A stretch of DNA of 64,000 nucleotides, taken from an uncultured Collinsella sp. (GTDB lineage Bacteria > Actinomycetota > Coriobacteriia > Coriobacteriales > Coriobacteriaceae). The notes beneath the pieces were generated by a model that saw only the letters and a list, made by a program, of their open reading frames with translations, was not told the DNA's origin and made no database searches. The stretch spans positions 6,215 through 70,214 of the forward strand of contig UQPI01000001.1 of assembly GCA_900542945.1 (NCBI GenBank). The letters are read 5' to 3'. Positions 11,262-55,900 of this stretch are shown piece by piece (position 1 is the stretch's first letter; each line of letters begins with the position of its first letter). The position numbers and the translations under genes were made by a program.

Positions 11262-11416
11262 AACCTGCCATGTAGGGACAGGTTTATTTTGGTAGGTTTT
11301 ACCTGCTGTTTTGTTGATATGACGGCGCGTGCTGTTATGGCGCGCGCCGAAATGGCGCAACTATGAGCACCGTTTGGCGCCTGCTCGTCAGACGGTAGTG
11401 GGAGAGGAAGGCTCAG

Positions 11417-19835: not shown

Positions 19836-19881
19836 TGTGACAAAGGGACAGTCCCTTTGTCACATAGAGAAAGGAATCGCG

Positions 19882-20505
19882 ATGAGCGATCTGGAGAATA
19901 AGAAGAATCCTGTGGTCATTACCATCGCGCGCGATTTTGGTGCCGAGGGCCACGAGATCGGACGCATCCTCGCCAACGAGCTGGGGATTCCGCTGTACGA
20001 TAACGAGCTGCTGGTGCGCGCATCGCTGCGCGCGGGCGAGTCGCTCGATAAGATGGCCGCCTATGACGAGCGTCTGGCTGTGGAGAACATGGCGTTTCTG
20101 CCCGACCGCTACGATGCGCGTTCGTACTCGGACAAGCTGTTCCAAAAGATGAGCCAGGTGATTTTGGATTTGGGCGAGACCGAGAGCTGCATTATCGAAG
20201 GCCGCCTGTCCGATTATCTGCTTCGTAACAACCCCAACCACATTGCCGTGCTCGTGACCGCACCCTTTGAGGACCGCGTTGAGATCGTACGCAAGAAGCG
20301 TGGTCTTAACAAAAAGAAGGGCGCCAAGCTGGTCAAACAGCAGCAGAAGGCGCGCGAGGCGTTCTATAAGCGCTACAGCGCCGGCAAGTGGAAGATGACG
20401 AGCGGTAAGGATATCGTCGTCAACCGCGCCAAGCTGGGGCGCGAAGGCTGCAAAGACGTTATCGCCGCTGCCTACCGCTACAAGGTAGCGCAGCTCGAAG
20501 CTTAA
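19882..20505 (+). CDS. Cytidylate kinase-like family protein (PF13189-type)
   Basis: VVITIARDFGAEGHEIGRILANELGIPLYDNELL is a typical N-terminus for this family. Confidence 0.6.
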   Translation: MSDLENKKNPVVITIARDFGAEGHEIGRILANELGIPLYDNELLVRASLRAGESLDKMAAYDERLAVENMAFLPDRYDARSYSDKLFQKMSQVILDLGETESCIIEGRLSDYLLRNNPNHIAVLVTAPFEDRVEIVRKKRGLNKKKGAKLVKQQQKAREAFYKRYSAGKWKMTSGKDIVVNRAKLGREGCKDVIAAAYRYKVAQLEA

Positions 20506-20507
20506 CC

Positions 20508-20885
20508 GACCAAAACCACCACAAAGGGGACAGGCACCTTTGTGGTGGTTTTGCTTTAGGCCGAGGGAAAGGCCTTGGCGGCAGTGCCTATCCTCGGCTT
20601 TTGCATAGTCTCGATCTGTAACACCAAGCCAGCGAAAATGGCTCTAACTGTTACAGATTTAGATGAACCGTTCGGCCGTCAGCCCAACGTCTTGATCTGT
20701 AACACCAGGCGGCATATTTGGCCTCTAACTGTTACAGATTGAGATGCGGCGTGGGCGGCCGGCACAATATCTCGATCTGTAACAACTGCAGGGCTCAACG
20801 GACTCCAGCTGTTACAGATTGAGACAAAACGACCGGGCAAGTCCCAAACCACCACAAAGGTGTCTGCCCCATCGTGGTGGTTTGG
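20508..20885. repeat. Composite hairpin-repeat locus: two 40-bp outer hairpins in inverted orientation bracketing three tandem palindromic units (TCTCGATCTGTAACA - variable 20-26 nt - TGTTACAGATYGAGA)
   Basis: Units at 20607-20665, 20689-20748 and 20768-20826. Outer hairpins CAAAACCACCACAAAGGGGACAGGCACCTTTGTGGTGGTTTTG (20508-20548) and its relative at 20836-20885. Arms are inverted, not direct, so this is not CRISPR. Confidence 0.8.
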
Positions 20886-20964
20886 GCGGCCGGCATAGAA
20901 AAAGTCCCCGCCGGGCGTGTGCTCGACGGGGGCTTTGCCGTTTGATGGCTAGCACTACAGGTGA

Positions 20965-22374
20965 TTACTCGCCCAGCAGGCTCTTGGTGATGGAAGCGGC
21001 GGCCTTCTTGCCGGCGCCCATCGCCAGAATGACCGTAGCGGCACCGGTGACGATGTCGCCGCCGGCCCAGATGCGGGGATCGGTGGTCTGGCCGGTCTCC
21101 TCGTCGGCGACGATGTAGCCCCACTTGTTGAGCTCCATCTTGCCGCCGATCTTCTTTGCGAAGGGGTTGGCGTTGGTGCCGATAGCCGAGATCGCGACGT
21201 CGCAGGGGATCTCCTCGATGGCGCCCTCGATGGGCACCGGGCGACGACGGCCGGACTCGTCAGGCTCGCCGAGCTCCATCTTCTGGACCTTGACAGCGCA
21301 CACGGAGCCGTCCTCGCCAGCGACAAACTCGAGCGGGGAGACGAGCGGCAGAACCTCGACGCCCTCGGCCTTAGCATGGTGCAGCTCGGCGCGACGGCAG
21401 GGCATCTCGTCCTCGGTACGGCGGTAGGCGATGATGGCGTGCTCGGCGCCCAGGCGCTTGGCGGTACGGACGGCGTCCATAGCCACGTTGCCGCCACCAA
21501 AGACGACGACGTTCTTGCCGTGCTTGGTGGGGGTGTCGTACTCGGGGAACTTGTTGGCCTTCATCAGGTTCACGCGGGTGAGGTACTCGTTAGCGAAGAA
21601 GACGTTGGGCAGGTTCTCGCCGGGGACGTTGAGGAACTTGGGCAGGCCGGCGCCGGTTGCCACGTAGATGGCGTCGAAGCCCTGCTCGAACAGCTCCTCG
21701 GCCGTGGCCATGTTGCCCACGACGGAGTTGTACTCAAACTTGACGCCCATGTCCTCCAGGCCGTCGATCTCGCGCTTGACGACTGCCTTGGGCAGACGGA
21801 ACTCGGGGATGCCGTAGACCAGCACGCCGCCGCCGGTGAAGAATGCCTCGAAGACGGTGACGTCAAAGCCGTTGCGGGCGAGCTCGCCGGCGCAGGTGAT
21901 GCCGGACGGGCCGGAGCCGACGACGGCGACCTTCTTGCCGTTCTTGGGGGCCATCTTGGGCGTGGAGGCGAGCTCGGGGCGGTCACCCAGGAAGCGCTCG
22001 AGCTGGCCGATGGCCACGGGCTCGGACTTCTTGCCGCGGATGCACTTGCCCTCGCACTGGTTCTCCTGCGGGCAGACGCGGCCGCAGATGGCGGGAAGCA
22101 TGGAGTCCTCGCGGATGGTATCGAGGGCGCCGCCGAAGTCCTTCGCGCGGATCTGCTCGATAAAGCGGGGGATGTTGATGTTGACGGGGCAGCCCTCAAC
22201 ACAGAACGGCTTCTTGCAGTTGAGGCAGCGCTCGGCCTCGGCCAGCGCCATCTCCTCGGTGAAGCCCTTGTCGACGGGGCGGAAGTCGCAGGCGCGCTCG
22301 GCAGCCGGCTCCTCGTTATCGGGGGTGCGGGGCGACTTCATATCGGCAACGAAACGACCGTTAACTAGTGGCAT
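20965..22374 (-). CDS. nfnB: NADH-dependent reduced ferredoxin:NADP oxidoreductase subunit B / glutamate synthase small-subunit-like
   Basis: N-terminal Cys-rich region (CLNCKKPFC...CPVNINIP). FAD/NAD Rossmann motif VAVVGSGPSGITCAG. It is paired with the upstream nfnA. Confidence 0.8.
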   Translation of the reverse strand: MPLVNGRFVADMKSPRTPDNEEPAAERACDFRPVDKGFTEEMALAEAERCLNCKKPFCVEGCPVNINIPRFIEQIRAKDFGGALDTIREDSMLPAICGRVCPQENQCEGKCIRGKKSEPVAIGQLERFLGDRPELASTPKMAPKNGKKVAVVGSGPSGITCAGELARNGFDVTVFEAFFTGGGVLVYGIPEFRLPKAVVKREIDGLEDMGVKFEYNSVVGNMATAEELFEQGFDAIYVATGAGLPKFLNVPGENLPNVFFANEYLTRVNLMKANKFPEYDTPTKHGKNVVVFGGGNVAMDAVRTAKRLGAEHAIIAYRRTEDEMPCRRAELHHAKAEGVEVLPLVSPLEFVAGEDGSVCAVKVQKMELGEPDESGRRRPVPIEGAIEEIPCDVAISAIGTNANPFAKKIGGKMELNKWGYIVADEETGQTTDPRIWAGGDIVTGAATVILAMGAGKKAAASITKSLLGE

Positions 22375-23204: not shown

Positions 23205-23578
23205 AGAACCCCTCTCTTGTTAGGGCGGCCGAACCGTGCCTCCACGGAAATGGACGGCAGCCCGAATAAAACCGTACGCGCACAGGCGTTGTGCAGACAT
23301 ACGGTGCAAATTATACCCTCATGGGCATGTCACTTACGTGTATCTTCGGCAGGTGGGAAAAGGGTTTATCCCGTCTGGCCTGCCAAAAAGGGACAGGTTT
23401 ATTTTGGTCGGTTTTATCAGGCAAAACGGCAAAAGGAGCCGGCTTCGCGCTTTGGTGAGGCCGGCTCCTTTTGAGGCATTGCATATGTATGGCGGCGCAG
23501 GGTTTATTGCGGAGCCGCCACTGTGGCGTTTCCGCAGATAAAACCTGCCAAAAGAAACCTGTCCCTAAATGGTAGGTT

Positions 23579-37191: not shown

Positions 37192-38388
37192 ATGAAACTC
37201 ATCAATAGAACGTCATATATGGACACGTTGACGAGCCTTATTGGCGTACCGGACATCAAGGTCATAACGGGCATTCGCCGTAGCGGTAAGTCAAAATTGC
37301 TCGAGGCCCTCCGCGATTACGTGGAGGCAAATCTGTCCAATTCGAATGTCATCCATATCAATTACAACCTCGACGAGTTCGAGGGCCTGCTCGAATATCA
37401 TGCCCTGCTCGCCTATGTGAAAGAGCATCGAGTGTCCGACAAGCAAAACTCCCTGCTTATCGACGAGGTTCAGATGTGCGACGGCTTTGAACGCGCGATC
37501 AACAGCCTCCATGCATCCGAGCAGTACGACATCTTCATCACCGGATCGAACGCCTTTTTGCTGTCGAGCGATCTGTCGACGCTCTTTACGGGGCGCACGT
37601 TCGAGATCGAGGTTTTCCCATTCTCGTTTGAGGAGTATCGCCTCTATAGTGACGAGGGCGAGGTCGATCGCGACTTCGATGAGTACGCGAGAACCGGCGG
37701 TATGTCCGGCTCTTACCCTTATCCACTGCAGGAGCAGCGCTACCAATATCTCTCCAATGTCTTCAAAACGCTCATCGTGAGGGATATCGTGCAGCGGCAT
37801 AACGTGAGAAACGAATCGGCACTGCTGCGCATTGCCGATTACATGATGGACAACGTCTCCAATATAACGTCGGCACGCAACATTACAGATGTTTTGAATG
37901 CGGATGGGCTAAAGATTACGAACAAGACGGTCGGCACGTACATGGGGTACCTGTGCGATGCGTTTGCCTTCTATAAAGTTCGTCGGTACGACATTCGCGG
38001 CAAAAAATACCTTAAGAGCGGCGAGAAGTATTACCTGGCAGACCACGCGTTCAAATACGCACTGCTTGGTACACGTGATATGGATTGGGGACGCGTATAC
38101 GAGAACATGGTGGCCATCGAGCTGCTGCGCCGCGGATACGAGGTATACGTCGGTGTGCTCTATAAAAAGGAAATAGACTTTGTAGCAATCAAGCGAAGCG
38201 AGAAGCTCTACATTCAGGTGAGCGACGACATCAGCTCGGATAAGACGTTTGAACGCGAGATTTCGCCACTGCTGAGCATTGGCGATGCGTATCCCAAGAT
38301 GATTCTTGCCCGCACGCATCACGAGGCCACGGATCGCGATGGGGTGCAGATCGTGGACCTGGCGAGGTGGTTGTGCGGCGAGGCTTAG
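37192..38388 (+). CDS. AAA-family ATPase with DUF4143-type C-terminal domain
   Basis: Walker A GIRRSGKSKLLE in an AAA_14-like N-terminus, typical of the ATPase/DUF4143 family. Confidence 0.7.
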   Translation: MKLINRTSYMDTLTSLIGVPDIKVITGIRRSGKSKLLEALRDYVEANLSNSNVIHINYNLDEFEGLLEYHALLAYVKEHRVSDKQNSLLIDEVQMCDGFERAINSLHASEQYDIFITGSNAFLLSSDLSTLFTGRTFEIEVFPFSFEEYRLYSDEGEVDRDFDEYARTGGMSGSYPYPLQEQRYQYLSNVFKTLIVRDIVQRHNVRNESALLRIADYMMDNVSNITSARNITDVLNADGLKITNKTVGTYMGYLCDAFAFYKVRRYDIRGKKYLKSGEKYYLADHAFKYALLGTRDMDWGRVYENMVAIELLRRGYEVYVGVLYKKEIDFVAIKRSEKLYIQVSDDISSDKTFEREISPLLSIGDAYPKMILARTHHEATDRDGVQIVDLARWLCGEA

Positions 38389-39444: not shown

Positions 39445-39521
39445 TGCGGGGTGGAGCAGTCTGGTAGCTCGCCGGGCTCATAACCCGGAGGTCGTAGGTT
39501 CAAATCCTGCCCCCGCGACCA
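39445..39521 (+). tRNA. tRNA-Met (CAT), initiator-like
   Basis: GCGGGGTGGAGCAGTCTGGTAGCTCGCCGGGCTCATAACCCGGAGGTCGTAGGTTCAAATCCTGCCCCCGCGACCA is almost identical to canonical bacterial tRNA-fMet. It has three G-C pairs in the anticodon stem and encoded CCA. A hairpin plus T-run terminator follows at 39530-39565. Confidence 0.9.
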
Positions 39522-39611
39522 AGAACTTGCAGCTCGTCGGCCTAGCCGGCGAGCTTTTTTGTTATTCCGGGACCGTGTTTTTCGGTCCAATTCTCAGCCT
39601 CTCAAACAAAA

Positions 39612-39748
39612 TCTCGATCTGTAACATCTAGACCCGATTTGGGCGGCTAGGTGTTACAGATCGAGATGTTGAGTCCCCGCCTGGACGGTTTGTCTAAATC
39701 TGTAACACGAGGGATGGATTTTGCCGAGTAACTGTTACAGATCGAGAC
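39612..39748. repeat. Two further copies of the TCTCGATCTGTAACA...TGTTACAGATCGAGA hairpin unit
   Basis: Units at 39612-39672 and 39688-39748 have the same 15-bp arms as the 20.6-kb locus and different spacers. Confidence 0.8.
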
Positions 39749-42100: not shown

Positions 42101-42153
42101 CAGTGGAATAGAGGAATCAGAAAGCAGGAACTGGAAATCTGCGGGGGTGGCTC

Positions 42154-43458
42154 ATGGCGGGCGAGAGGCTACATCGGGACGGATACATCCCACGTATCGT
42201 GGATGCGCAAATCGAGCGCTACCTTCGTGTCTTTGGCGCGGTCGAGATTGCGGGCACCAAGTGGTGCGGCAAGACGTGGGCCGCGCTCGAGCACGGGGCG
42301 TCCGTCTCGTATGTCGACGAGAATCTCGACCTCGCGCGTGCCGACCCGGCGATGATGTTGCTGGGTGACCGTCCGCATATTATCGATGAGTGGCAGCGCG
42401 TTCCCCAGATTTGGGACTACGTTAGACACGAGGTTGACCGCACCCGGGGCACGCGCGGCGCCTATATCCTCACGGGTTCCGCCACGCCTGCGTTTGGCTC
42501 AAAGGCGGAGGCGCCCGCGCATAGTGGAGCCGGCCGCATCGGCCGCGTCCGCATGCACCCCATGACGTTTGCCGAGACAGGTGAGTCCAACGGCAAGGTG
42601 AGCCTGGCGGGCTTGTTTGAGCATCGTTTTGAGCCCTGCCGGTGCGATGGCGATACGCCGGGGCTTGTCGAAGCCGCCTGCCGCGGCGGCTGGCCCGAGG
42701 CGATCGATATGGTTTCGGCTGACGCCCAGCTCATCGCCCGCGAATATCTCAACACCACATTTTCGAGCAGCTTCCCGGCGGTCGGTCTCGACCCCGATAT
42801 TGCTCGTCGAGTCTCCGCATCGATCGCGCGCAATCTGGGACAGGCAACCACGTATAAAACGATTCTTATGGATATGTTCGGTGCCGAGGAGGAACCCGCA
42901 GCGTTTGCCGACGAGACCAAGGTGCGTAGGTACCTGGATGCCCTCAAAGGCATGTTCATTCTCGAGGAGGTCCCCGGTTGGGTTCCCGCCGCGCGCGACA
43001 AACGGCGCTTTACCGTCAAGCCCAAGCGCTATCTGGCAGATCCGAGCCTTGCTTGCGCCTTGCTAGGTATGTCCTTGCAGGCGCTGCTTGCCGACTGGCA
43101 GACATTTGGTCTGGTGTTTGAGAATTTGGTCATACGCGACCTTTCGGTCTACGCACGTTCGCTCGACCTGCTGGATAGCACGCCCGTGCGCTATTATCGC
43201 GACGATTCGGGCCTTGAGTGCGATGCTATCGTGCAGCTAGCCGACGGACGGTGGGCCGCCTTTGAGATTAAGGTGAGTGAAGATAAAGCGAGCGCCGGCG
43301 TCGAGAGCCTCAAGCGCGTTCGCAAGAAGGTCTGTGGAAATCCCCGTTCACGCACACGCGAACCGGAGTTTATGGCCGTGATTGTGGGGGTGGGTGAGTA
43401 CGCCCGCGAGGTCGAGGACGGTATCTACGTGATACCCGTGCGCGCGTTGGGGTGTTAA
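42154..43458 (+). CDS. AAA-family ATPase with DUF4143-type C-terminal domain (second copy)
   Basis: Walker A GTKWCGKTWAALE. Same architecture as 37192-38388. Terminator hairpin at 43463-43490. Confidence 0.7.
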   Translation: MAGERLHRDGYIPRIVDAQIERYLRVFGAVEIAGTKWCGKTWAALEHGASVSYVDENLDLARADPAMMLLGDRPHIIDEWQRVPQIWDYVRHEVDRTRGTRGAYILTGSATPAFGSKAEAPAHSGAGRIGRVRMHPMTFAETGESNGKVSLAGLFEHRFEPCRCDGDTPGLVEAACRGGWPEAIDMVSADAQLIAREYLNTTFSSSFPAVGLDPDIARRVSASIARNLGQATTYKTILMDMFGAEEEPAAFADETKVRRYLDALKGMFILEEVPGWVPAARDKRRFTVKPKRYLADPSLACALLGMSLQALLADWQTFGLVFENLVIRDLSVYARSLDLLDSTPVRYYRDDSGLECDAIVQLADGRWAAFEIKVSEDKASAGVESLKRVRKKVCGNPRSRTREPEFMAVIVGVGEYAREVEDGIYVIPVRALGC

Positions 43459-52900: not shown

Positions 52901-55900
52901 GTATGTTGGCCGCGTGATTGACGGCTATGCGTTCAGCGAGCTTACCGATGGTAGGAGTCTCGACAACACTGATCGCAACTACAAGGTGAACAATCTGGAT
53001 ACTTCGAAGACGGGGTGCATCAAGACGGATGCGACGCAGGGCCGCTATAGGGGAGACGACGCCAATAGCTCTGCGATAACCACAACCGTCAATGACTCGC
53101 AGGGACTGCTCGTACTCTCGGCCATCATCAGCAGCGGTGCGGCCGGCGGTTCGGCGAATACGAATACCACGAACGATGCGTATGGAACGTATGCGGGCTC
53201 GCGTGCCTACATGGGCGGCAACAACGCAAAGGGAGTGTACCAATTCGGCAACAAGCAATACGGCAAAGTTCGCAATGCGAGCTATGCATCCGTTGGAAAG
53301 CCGGGGAGTGCCGACAGCGATTTTGCCGATGCGAAAAACGATGACATGAAAAGCCCCGGTATCCAGTGGGAGGGTAACGCGCTCGACTACACAGGCGATG
53401 GTTCGGGCGTTAACTCCCCCTACCTGATAAAGAAATACGCGACGTGGCAGACGGGCTACGTCTGTGCCGCGCAGGTCTCGGGAATGGATTTGCGGTTCGT
53501 GAACACGAACAAGGACATTGATCCGGACAAGGACATTGATTATGACATGACGCCTTACGGTACGGGTTACACGGGTCTTTCGGGCCGCTACTACTCAAAC
53601 GCATGCGCATCCGGTAAGGGCGCCGACCGCGATCGCATCGTGCCGCTTGTTGCGTGCATCAACGGCGACGACGGTGCAAAAATTAAGGTCGGTAGCAAGA
53701 AGGCCAACAAGGTATATGGGGTCACGGAGTACGCCGACGATAATTACAAACTCACCGGATTGGGCGCTCTCTTTGGCACCGTAACGTACACCTCGACCAA
53801 CGTGTCGGGGAGTATCGGCACTCCGGCAACGGACGGCGCTGCTGCTACGGGCAACGGCGGCTATACCGTCCAGAACCTAAAGTTCGATGACTGCAATATT
53901 TCTCTTACGTATATCAATGCAGCCGGCGCCCCCAGTGGTTCGGGTAATGAGCAGGTTGGCGTCGGTCTGCTTGCGGGTACTACGGCGAACGCGAGCTCGC
54001 TGGCAGATTACGGCAAATATGCAGGAATTACCATGGATAACTGCAGGGTGAATGGCCCCAATAACGTTGGCGGATTGCTCGGCGCATCCGGCTATGGTAG
54101 CCGCAGGACTGACAAAGATGCAACTTTGCTGGTGAATCGTAACGATGAATCACAAGCGACAACGCGCTATTCTCCGGTCAAACTTTACGATTGCTCTTAT
54201 AGCAACATGGACATTTCTGGCGTGCAAAACGTCGGTGGCTTCGTCGGCAAGCTGAACAAAAATTCCGCTGGTGGCGTTTGGACAAAAACGAACATGTCTA
54301 TTGCCAAGAATTCCACGATTATGTCAACTGCTTCTAACGCAAGGACCGGCGGTGTCGTGGGTCTTGCTGGAGGTGGTTTCCTGGTGAACACCGATGATGC
54401 TGGAACGCCTTCGCAGGGTGCCGGAAAGGCGGAGATCAGCAATGTCACGCTTCAGCCGGCAGCATCGAGCGCGACCGAGGGGACCGGCGGCCTTATCGGA
54501 AGGTCCGAAAATGGAATCGTGTCTGTCTACAATCTGTGCATCCAAGGCGACGTGCAGAGTAAAACGGTATTTGGTGTTAGAGGATCGAATAATCTTAAGT
54601 ACGTTGCTGGTGCAGTTGGCGAAGCGGCTTCGGGCGGTGCATTTAAGTTCGATAGCTGTGTAATAAAAGACATCTATCTTGGTGCTCGTGAGTGCTCTGC
54701 CGGTTTAATCGGTGATCTGAAAGGTGGGTGTGCCCTCGAGGTCAAGAATTCAACTATCACTGGACTGGTCGTCGATGGTTCGTATTCTGGTAGTGTTGTT
54801 GGCTCGATCGGTAACACGGCGAACTCTGTCACGCTTTTGAATTCGACCATTGGCGAGAATAACTTTACCGGTAGCAAGAACGCTGCATGGAACTCATCGC
54901 TGGGAAATTGTTCTGGTGGCGTGTCTGGCGATGGCCGTGGCTCATTTAGGCTCGTAAACGTGCTCATGGATCGCAATATCTTTGGGGCGCAAACTAGCCA
55001 GGGATATTTGTTCGGAAATAGTTCATCCGCTGATCTTGTCAACGTTTTTGTCGCAGGAATTGCCATTAGACCAAACAGTGCGAGTGAATCGCTCAAGCTG
55101 ATGCGCAATTCTTCCGGCACCGACGACCTTAAAAAAGTGAACAAAAAGTCATACATCGCATTTGCTGCCTATGAAGACAAGCTTTCCGATGCCAAGGGCG
55201 CGACACTGTATGGCAACGATGCTGCGAACGGCAATGTGACGCCGGCCGTTTCGCCCTACGTGACTACGAGTCCGGTGAGCGAGCTGGCGGTGCGTGCCTC
55301 CGACAACGACACCACCGATCGCCATCTGTTTGGCGACGGCATGAACGTTCCTGGTGCAGCGACTATCAAGGACCAAGCGGGGACCAACGTCACCAACCGT
55401 TATACCTACACCAATATCGGTGGCATCGATAAAGACGGCGCCTATCAAAATACCTCGAGCTACGATGCCTCATCCGTGGCGAGTAAGTTCAATTCGAATA
55501 ATGATACAAGCAACAACCAAGCCACAACGGATTTCCCTGTTTTGGTGATCTCTGGCAACGACAACACGACGGTCAAGAGCTATCTAAACATCATCACGAA
55601 CGGCGGCTTCTCCGACGCTTGCAGATTGAATAACGAGAATGGCACCAATCCGCACGTGACGGCCAAAGCAGAGGTTTTCCAACTCAAGGATGGTGTGTTC
55701 GTTAAGGACGATGACGCGTCGAACAATCCCACGCTTCGCGTAGTGAACAACGGCAAGAACAATATGTCGTTTAGCCCAAGCTCCGATTGGGACAACGGCA
55801 AAGGTCGCTTTACGCTCCTGACCGTTACCTTTACCGAGGCGGGTCAGAGCTACAACGTTCAGGTGCCGATCATCGTTAAGCGCAAGCTCGAGATTGATTT

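Follow-up and report, generated by a model that had tools for sequence, protein, structure and literature searches.

An alternating inverted-repeat family with conserved arms and a 25-nt centre in the intergenic DNA of Collinsella

A stretch of 64,000 nucleotides from an uncultured Collinsella sp. (contig UQPI01000001.1 of assembly GCA_900542945.1), referred to here in its full length as the window, was found to hold five palindromic units with the pattern TCTC(G/A)ATCTGTAACA + 25 nt + TGTTACAGAT(C/T)GAGA at two loci. Based on the comparisons described below, these units are interpreted, with moderate confidence, as members of an interspersed, clade-specific family of DNA repeats in Collinsella that is built like the bacterial interspersed mosaic elements (BIMEs) and like the doublets of repetitive extragenic palindromic (REP) sequences known as REPINs, and whose arms are predicted half-sites for recognition by a protein.

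Anatomy, conservation and dynamics of the repeat family

The window units were located at 20609–20663, 20690–20744 and 20770–20824 (units 1–3, locus 1) and at 39612–39666 and 39693–39747 (units 4 and 5, locus 2), in the places given by the original prediction, which had been made from the letters of the window alone. The arm 15-mer and its complement gave ten true matches with at most two mismatches and one stray match at 54802, when 0.10 matches were expected from shuffles. The start-to-start spacing was 81, 80 and 81 nt with linkers of 25–26 nt. The variable centres, predicted to span 20–26 nt, were exactly 25 nt long in all five units, and the hairpin of each unit measured 55 nt instead of about 60.

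A scan for the pattern ATCTGTAACA-N15-35-TGTTACAGAT covered bacteria and archaea, each species being represented by a single genome. The loci were gathered by the exact 10+10-nt arm pattern, and the units were then counted with up to three mismatches per arm. Among the matches listed, to which all family counts below refer, at least 120 loci from about 110 assemblies were obtained, with at least 351 units; nearly all of these loci were named Collinsella, and the few others were unnamed bins or probable mis-binnings. Judging by these assemblies, the repeat family is specific to Collinsella (the aerofaciens clade), and the dispersed family that had been predicted is not confined to the two window loci. 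The 144 arrays of the listed loci fell into 25 orthology groups of 1–11 members. The Chao1 richness, calculated by hand from the sizes of these groups, amounted to about 29 sites per genome, with perhaps 70 units, which is an extrapolation and not a census. The family occupies tens of conserved intergenic sites per genome (about 25–30), not hundreds. A literature search yielded no paper with the arm sequence or with such repeats in Coriobacteriia; judging by the literature, the family was previously undescribed, while the kind of element is familiar.

The family consensus was ttTG-TCTC(G/A)ATCTGTAACA-nCTAGnnnnn-AAAA-nnnnnTCTAgn-TGTTACAGAT(C/T)GAGA-CAaa, with a conserved arm of 15 bp, or of about 19 bp when the flanking TTTG/CAAA was included (the outer flank, next to TCTC, being WWWR and mostly TTTG). 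The centre was 25 nt long in 252 of the 253 exact matches, and the gap between convergent arms was 25 nt in 351 of 354 pairs counted with up to three mismatches per arm. Of the linkers between divergent arms, 134 measured 25 nt and 90 measured 26 nt; they were G+C-rich and had only their ends in common. As a result, the arrays had a period of 80–81 bp with one arm every 40–41 bp in alternating orientation. Strict chaining gave 1–5 units per array, while the greatest array length, 618 bp, corresponds to 8 units. Single arms were almost never seen, and none of the listed loci had isolated arms bounding a gene.

The identity between non-orthologous units was 91% in the arms and 45% in the centres, the random expectation being 26%. 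When orthologous arrays of equal length were compared, the divergence was 1.5% in the arms, 5.6% in the flanks, 7.2% in the linkers and 10.5% in the centres. The A/T tract at positions 26–28 of the unit diverged by at most 4% between orthologues, and the five outer arm positions, on which the collection pattern placed no constraint, by about 2.7%. These rates suggest that the arms and the A/T tract are under purifying selection. Selection on the spacing is required as well, because the centre stayed at 25 nt despite a sequence divergence of about 55%. Besides its length, the centre retained a weak CTAG...CTAG dyad and the central A/T tract; once the units were oriented by the A/T run, A was present at 83–94% of positions 26–28. 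The orientation of the tract along the arrays was patternless, with 93 neighbouring pairs the same and 80 different.

Only one arm position was commonly variable (G/A at position 4, C/T at position 50), and it varied independently in the two arms. The polymorphism corresponded to a CpG decayed to CpA (TCTCG to TCTCA, or CGAGA to TGAGA in the complement) in about 45% of the arms, and the orientation-specific bias of this decay suggests a stronger constraint on C3 than on G4. Examples in the window were the arms at 20730–20744 and 20810–20824, the alternative TCTTG being much rarer. The centres were diverse: 303 of 351 were distinct, and the commonest occurred 5 times, or 6 times with its reverse complement. 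Sub-families of centres did exist at unrelated sites, where the listed close pairs differed by 1–4 of 25 nt. In one of them (L003 4538–4592, L009, L022, L043, L108 and L120) the centre ended in GGTCTCTATC, and this end formed with the next arm a nested 23-nt palindrome, TCTCTATCTGT-T-ACAGATTGAGA, like an extra half-arm within the centre.

The complementarity kept within several variable centres had been taken in the original prediction as a sign of selection for structure. The complementarity itself was present in the centres of window units 1, 2 and 4, and the window units folded well as DNA (z from −1.8 to −8.4), the RNA fold energies of the units being −15.6 to −36 kcal/mol. Across the family, however, it did not exceed what the shared palindromic consensus yields. 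In 72 non-redundant units, modeled with flank, arm, CTAG and inner helices, 79.3% of the cells paired versus 79.4% in shuffles, and the covariation score was 0.137 versus 0.136. At every symmetric pair of centre positions the Watson–Crick frequency was equal to or below the prediction from column composition. The real sequences folded no better than their column-shuffled controls (−3.08 versus −3.55 kcal/mol for centres, −22.8 versus −23.6 kcal/mol for whole units), and orienting the units by the A/T run left a weak pairing excess for one offset 3-bp stem. Thus, the complementarity of the window centres is accounted for by the decay of a shared palindromic consensus unaided, and selection for a hairpin structure in the centres is not supported by the pairing, covariation and folding controls.

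The lengths of orthologous arrays were stepwise, at 55, 135, 216, 296, 377 and 618 bp. At the tRNA-Met site (locus 2 of the window) 2, 3 or 4 units were present depending on the strain, the indel was exactly one unit with its linker, and the deletion end points fell within the repeats. It was thereby shown that the arrays gain and lose whole 80–81-bp units and are inherited vertically at about 25–30 fixed intergenic sites. Unequal recombination between identical arms, or slippage during replication, could account for such whole-unit changes. In addition, identical centres, and even identical linkers, were observed in arrays with unrelated flanks, for example in L065 and L021; therefore, there must have been past copying of units or multi-unit segments from site to site.

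No inversion of the centre was found: 585 orthologous centres were direct and 0 were inverted. Synteny breaks, scored as one-sided flank matches, were found at 13.5% of the arrays versus 19.5% of array-free intergenic gaps; an enrichment that had made the arrays look like gene-replacement hotspots against a within-gene control vanished against these gaps. The sole candidate for a clean empty site, L093, still carried a degenerate unit. In species with a CoaX protein 76–87% identical to that of the window, the tRNA-Met gene adjoined coaX, yet no array followed and the downstream DNA was unrelated; no insertion boundaries were readable in these array-free relatives, the whole region past tRNA-Met being different.

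The DNA past tRNA-Met was observed to be an integration hotspot in more distant Collinsella. L139 carried an IS3-type HTH_Tnp_1 gene there (1858–2268), and L143 (6786–7600) a gene for an SLFN/AlbA_2 ATPase together with a frameshifted IS200 transposase and a partly duplicated 3′ end of tRNA-Met. Units with a 25-nt centre were also seen in ten IMG/VR contigs of the viral class (L121, L123, L124, L129, L131–L133, L135, L137 and L138), three of which had arrays of 2–3 units.

A crude gene caller assigned 105 gene contexts to the arrays, of which 39 were convergent, 30 divergent and 36 tandem, and no array lay inside a called open reading frame (ORF). Within 120 nt of the arrays, terminator-like hairpins were inward-facing in 54 cases versus outward-facing in 24 (244 flanks), and at both window loci and often elsewhere the arrays were distal to intrinsic terminators. 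No cas, integrase, recombinase or transposase gene was found near the arrays. A tblastn search of 1.08 Mb around the 144 arrays with approximate REP-associated tyrosine transposase (RAYT) and IS200 TnpA queries gave nothing (E>0.5), a negative that counts as weak evidence. Transposases of the Y1 type do occur in related Coriobacteriia. One Y1 gene near coaX in a relative was rejected as a partner: it is a classical IS200 with a frameshift, its species has no array at that locus, and the array-bearing loci contain no homologue of it; a database search with this gene returned ordinary IS200 transposases only and no link to arrays.

A gene of about 356 aa (L013 5028–6095) was placed 12–28 bp from arrays on both sides, some of which were among the longest (up to 5 units), and had orthologues in L019, L041, L054, L056, L072, L076, L088 and L103. 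It was dropped as an array-associated family, as the nine loci were orthologues of one site and, orthology groups of 5–11 members being the rule, gave no enrichment. The protein had no Pfam, NCBIfam or PDB match; its C-terminal motif (E..VD..ELDGK..VLRFT) presumably resembles DUF559-type nuclease folds. A 36%-identical paralogue was separated from arrays by about 0.9 kb in L025 and L049 and by greater distances in L044 and L086.

Proposed role of the arms and alternative explanations

Recognition of two half-sites at a set distance on double-stranded DNA is proposed because the arms are near-invariant and vary independently, their spacing is fixed, the interior is free and the symmetry is blind to the strand. 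The arms would serve as sequence-specific half-sites for a trans-acting protein, either transposase-derived or architectural, and the A/T tract midway between them may help the DNA to bend. The hairpin potential would then be a by-product of the dyad symmetry. In arrays, the half-sites would form a regular 40–41-bp lattice, and the arrays would grow or shrink through recombination or slippage between the arms. Phased A-tracts were considered and dropped, the arms' own A/T triplets being out of phase.

A further step, to which we give little probability, is that the arrays are binding lattices for a Collinsella-specific DNA-binding protein, a chain of dimers of which would coat or wrap 55–620 bp at about 30 intergenic positions. 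If this were true, the family might serve chromosome architecture or insulation between transcription units instead of being selfish DNA.

Several points weigh against the half-site interpretation. Neither a binding protein nor a transposase has been assigned to the arms, and the genes that adjoin the arrays are housekeeping genes. The copy number per genome comes from the Chao1 extrapolation and not from a census. The arm divergence is somewhat underestimated, as the collection pattern fixed the inner ten arm positions. The 30 of 105 arrays that the crude caller placed in divergent promoter regions make an effect on transcription possible. Finally, an enzyme that reads hairpins would tolerate one mismatch per 15-bp stem, so the lack of covariation only weakens a mechanism based on single-stranded hairpins.

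Such a mechanism would make the units true REPINs: the 55-nt unit would form a single-stranded DNA hairpin in replication and be cut and pasted by a single-copy RAYT of the Y1/HUH type encoded elsewhere. Two conserved inverted repeats with a less conserved spacer, tandem clusters and vertical inheritance agree with the published description (PMC3116915), each unit has a strong hairpin potential, units were copied to unrelated sites and Y1 transposases are known in related Coriobacteriia. We nevertheless regard this explanation as rather improbable, as the arm itself is no palindrome and has no 5′ GTAG/GTGG motif, the stem is not maintained by compensation, no master sequence stands out among the centres and a hairpin has no need of a strict 25-nt loop. 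The tblastn search around the arrays, with its approximate queries, revealed no Y1 gene, and the one Y1 gene met was unconnected with the arrays. The remaining explanations were considered less likely than this hairpin and RAYT mechanism. Of these, a role at the RNA level supposes hairpins in 3′ untranslated or intergenic regions that block exonucleases, cause termination or attenuation of transcription, or give rise to small RNAs by processing. E. coli REPs stabilise upstream mRNA, and the Collinsella units likewise fold into stable hairpins and often lie past gene 3′ ends, in the convergent and tandem contexts. Yet the units showed no covariation and folded no better than column-shuffled ones, and in tandem contexts read in the transcribed sense the A·C mismatches (22) equalled the G·U wobbles (20), leaving no RNA-strand signature, while the A or T tract had no strand preference (44 versus 32). 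The arrays were placed beyond intrinsic terminators at both window loci and many others, 30 of them lay between divergent genes, and no promoter excess was found at the arrays. In Rfam only tRNA reached the gathering score, and at E<=10 only spurious microRNA-hairpin matches and no family match were obtained for the units. The structured small RNA array, one of the originally predicted candidates, is thus unlikely.

Another possibility is that the family is a functionless relic, namely an old 81-bp tandem repeat that was dispersed long ago and the arms of which were kept alike by gene conversion and not by selection. It would fit centres and linkers that change as fast as the flanks or faster, array segments common to several sites, as ectopic conversion would give, and sites that are stable and vertically inherited. 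It is made doubtful by the conversion tracts it demands, which would have to cover 15 bp and leave the neighbouring 25 bp untouched in every one of hundreds of units, an implausible pattern; moreover, keeping the centre length despite the divergence needs selection on length, and the central A/T tract shows its conservation in either orientation. The arms could also be targets of a site-specific recombinase, whether as borders of invertible 25-bp segments, as sites like attC of integrons or as boundaries of gene-exchange cassettes. A short segment flanked by inverted repeats, single genes with arrays on both sides and the variability of the region after tRNA-Met in relatives all recall such systems. 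This originally predicted candidate is very improbable and largely refuted by the centres, every one of which was direct, by the lower frequency of synteny breaks at arrays than at array-free gaps, by outer ends without GTTRRRY/RYYYAAC and by the lack of integrase or recombinase genes nearby.

The two window loci and neighbouring hairpin families

Locus 1 (20609–20824) was situated between convergent genes, a cytidylate-kinase-like gene (19837–20505) on the left and a gltD-like oxidoreductase gene (20965–22374, minus strand, ending at 20965) on the right. No strand was assigned to units, linkers or bracketing hairpins. The arms were TCTCGATCTGTAACA and TGTTACAGATTTAGA in unit 1 (DNA fold z = −4.5), TCTTGATCTGTAACA and TGTTACAGATTGAGA in unit 2, and TCTCGATCTGTAACA and TGTTACAGATTGAGA in unit 3, each pair enclosing 25 nt. 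The first linker (20664–20689) was 26 nt long, G+C-rich and not conserved in sequence, and the second (20745–20769) was 25 nt long. The cytidylate-kinase-like gene was preceded by amino-acid ABC transporter genes and had no counterpart in L082 and L111, whose gltD side was 97–98% identical; a different gene ended there in L111. The array of locus 1 was observed at a strain-variable junction.

Locus 2 (39612–39747) confirmed the predicted recurrence of the family after tRNA-Met. It began 91 nt past the tRNA-Met (CAT) gene (39445–39521, plus strand) and beyond the intrinsic terminator of that gene (39531–39555, plus strand), which consisted of an 11-bp stem followed by TTTTTTGTT; an NADH:flavin oxidoreductase gene was next. 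Unit 4 had perfect arms and the centre TCTAGACCCGATTTGGGCGGCTAGG (DNA fold z = −8.4), and its orthologue was found in 8 other loci. The 26-nt linker that followed (39667–39692) differed from the linker in the same position of other strains. In unit 5, with the arms TCTAAATCTGTAACA and TGTTACAGATCGAGA around 25 nt, the left part was the same as unit 2 of the 3–4-unit arrays of other strains, and the right part with its flank was the same as their last unit. By this alignment, unit 5 arose through the deletion of a whole unit. Two ATPase genes of the AAA_14 + DUF4143 type were noted 1.2 kb upstream (37192–38388) and 2.4 kb downstream (42112–43458) of locus 2.

The array of locus 1 had been described as bracketed by two 40-bp hairpins in inverted orientation. 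The hairpins and their inversion were real, but each was 44 nt long. The left one, H (20510–20553), had the sequence CCAAAACCACCACAAAGG-GGACAGGCA-CCTTTGTGGTGGTTTTG with 17-nt arms of 100% complementarity (−20.2 kcal/mol, z = −7.0) and began 5 nt past the stop codon of the cytidylate-kinase-like gene. The right one, H′ (20843–20886), was inverted relative to it (DNA fold z = −4.1) and had orthologous copies in L082 and L111. The loops of H and H′ were mutually inverted (25 nt, 92% complementary). A second hairpin with a T-run, GCCGAGG...CCTCGGCTTTTGC (20559–20604, plus strand), stood between H and unit 1, and its 3′ half (..ATCCTCGGCTTTTGCA) was kept at the same place in L111 despite a different upstream gene. 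A further hairpin with a T-run (20900–20940, minus strand) was present 3′ of the gltD-like gene and was also kept in L111. Both were terminator-like by eye and negative in the strict terminator scan.

The consensus of H, AAACCACCACAAAGG-GGACAGGCA-CCTTTGTGGTGGTTT, was detected about 10–70 nt from the arrays in 38 of the 120 listed loci, often on both sides, and the loop faced the array in all cases but one. Its start coincided with stop codons or followed them closely, and the stem was preceded by an A-run and followed by a T-run; the strict scan missed the hairpin, the loop being 9 nt. Besides the window, the loci with H included L010, L014, L039, L055, L075, L096, L112 and L120. We read H as a separate dispersed family of bidirectional terminator-like hairpins that probably belong to the flanking genes. 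H is not considered to be the end of a composite element, because its distance to the first arm varied and because the left copy at locus 1 was absent from strains with a different upstream gene.

A third hairpin family, AAAACCTGCC...GGGACAGGTTTATTTTGG(C/T)AGGTTTTA, with A and T runs, was observed directly after stop codons. Its three window copies (11262–11305, 23375–23425 and 23536–23570, minus strand) compared with 0.04 expected, and further copies were seen in the flanks of L003, L025, L094 and L112. It had GGGACAGG in common with the H loop and gave no match in Rfam.

Comparison with known systems

Collinsella aerofaciens ranks among the most common actinobacteria in the human gut and is divided by GTDB into hundreds of groups at species level. 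The fixed sites with whole-unit copy differences offer a ready-made marker of the variable number of tandem repeats (VNTR) type for strain typing in metagenomes, and the arrays are a likely cause of assembly breaks. The conservation of arms and length, together with the free interior and the lack of covariation, suggests that double-stranded DNA is recognised at a fixed spacing, and the identity of the binding protein would tell whether arrays of this kind evolve independently as lattices for protein binding.

The BIMEs are defined as "regularly spaced REPs in alternating orientations" (PMC2817692). The Collinsella arrays resemble those of E. coli and other proteobacteria in their short conserved repeats of alternating orientation and regular spacing, in their intergenic and taxon-specific occurrence and in lying often past gene 3′ ends. 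They also share two alternating fixed linker types, which are 25 nt head-to-head and 25–26 nt tail-to-tail in Collinsella. The A/T-rich element between the inverted arms recalls the IHF site of BIME-1/RIP elements; known REPs and BIMEs are bound by IHF, DNA gyrase or DNA polymerase I. However, a REP copy is itself an imperfect palindrome of about 20–40 nt, whereas no dyad lies within the Collinsella arm (15 bp, or 19 bp when TTTG is counted) and two arms are needed to make a palindrome. The GTAG/GTGG tetranucleotide at the foot of the REP hairpin, which is the element recognised by RAYTs, is absent as well. Of the three candidates originally predicted, the REP/BIME-like one fits the architecture. 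BIMEs occupy hundreds of sites, and REPs number more than 100 copies per genome, whereas about tens of sites per genome are estimated for Collinsella (2 arrays in the 64 kb of the window); the host is an actinobacterium of the Coriobacteriia, and the search of 1.08 Mb around the arrays revealed no associated RAYT. The family works like a BIME but is not filed as REP, several defining features of the latter being absent.

REPINs consist of two inverted REPs with a spacer and form tandem clusters of long vertical inheritance (PMC3116915). Similarly, the Collinsella unit comprises conserved inverted repeats (91%) and a less conserved spacer (45%), is capable of forming a hairpin and occurs in tandem clusters. 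In contrast to the near-identical tandem copies of REPINs, the Collinsella units differ by about 55% in the centre and have neither a master sequence nor covariation, and their spacer is much shorter and of fixed length.

The NIMEs of Neisseria, in which dRS3 repeats bracket variable RS segments, likewise combine a short conserved repeat with variable intervals in intergenic, strain-variable arrays. The dRS3 repeat is itself a 20-bp palindrome and an integration target, and the intervening segments are 50–150 bp long and of variable length. Unlike NIMEs, the Collinsella arrays show no link with gene exchange in the synteny-break comparison. Mycobacterial MIRU/VNTR loci offer another actinobacterial parallel of intergenic tandem units (50–100 bp) at fixed loci with whole-unit copy differences between strains. 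MIRUs are direct repeats, near-identical within a locus, non-palindromic and sometimes translated, whereas each Collinsella unit forms a dyad, the arms of which are conserved while the interior diverges.

Miniature inverted-repeat transposable elements differ in further respects: the bases outside the Collinsella arms are mutually complementary (TTTG...CAAA) without a direct target-site duplication, no isolated arms bound genes, as the ends of a parent insertion sequence would, and no clean empty site was seen (L093 retaining its degenerate unit). In agreement with the original prediction, the arrays are not CRISPR, as the repeats alternate in orientation, the centres follow a degenerate consensus and are kept between orthologues, and the neighbours are housekeeping genes with no cas genes among them. 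Integron attC sites are distinguished by the AAC/GTT at the inner arm ends of the Collinsella units and by the 80–81-bp unit spacing, which leaves no room for ORFs. Taken together, the family represents a BIME/REPIN-like architecture outside the proteobacteria, without the usual REP stem-loop or a visible RAYT; it does not overturn current views, and its pattern of conservation at the DNA level is unusually clean.

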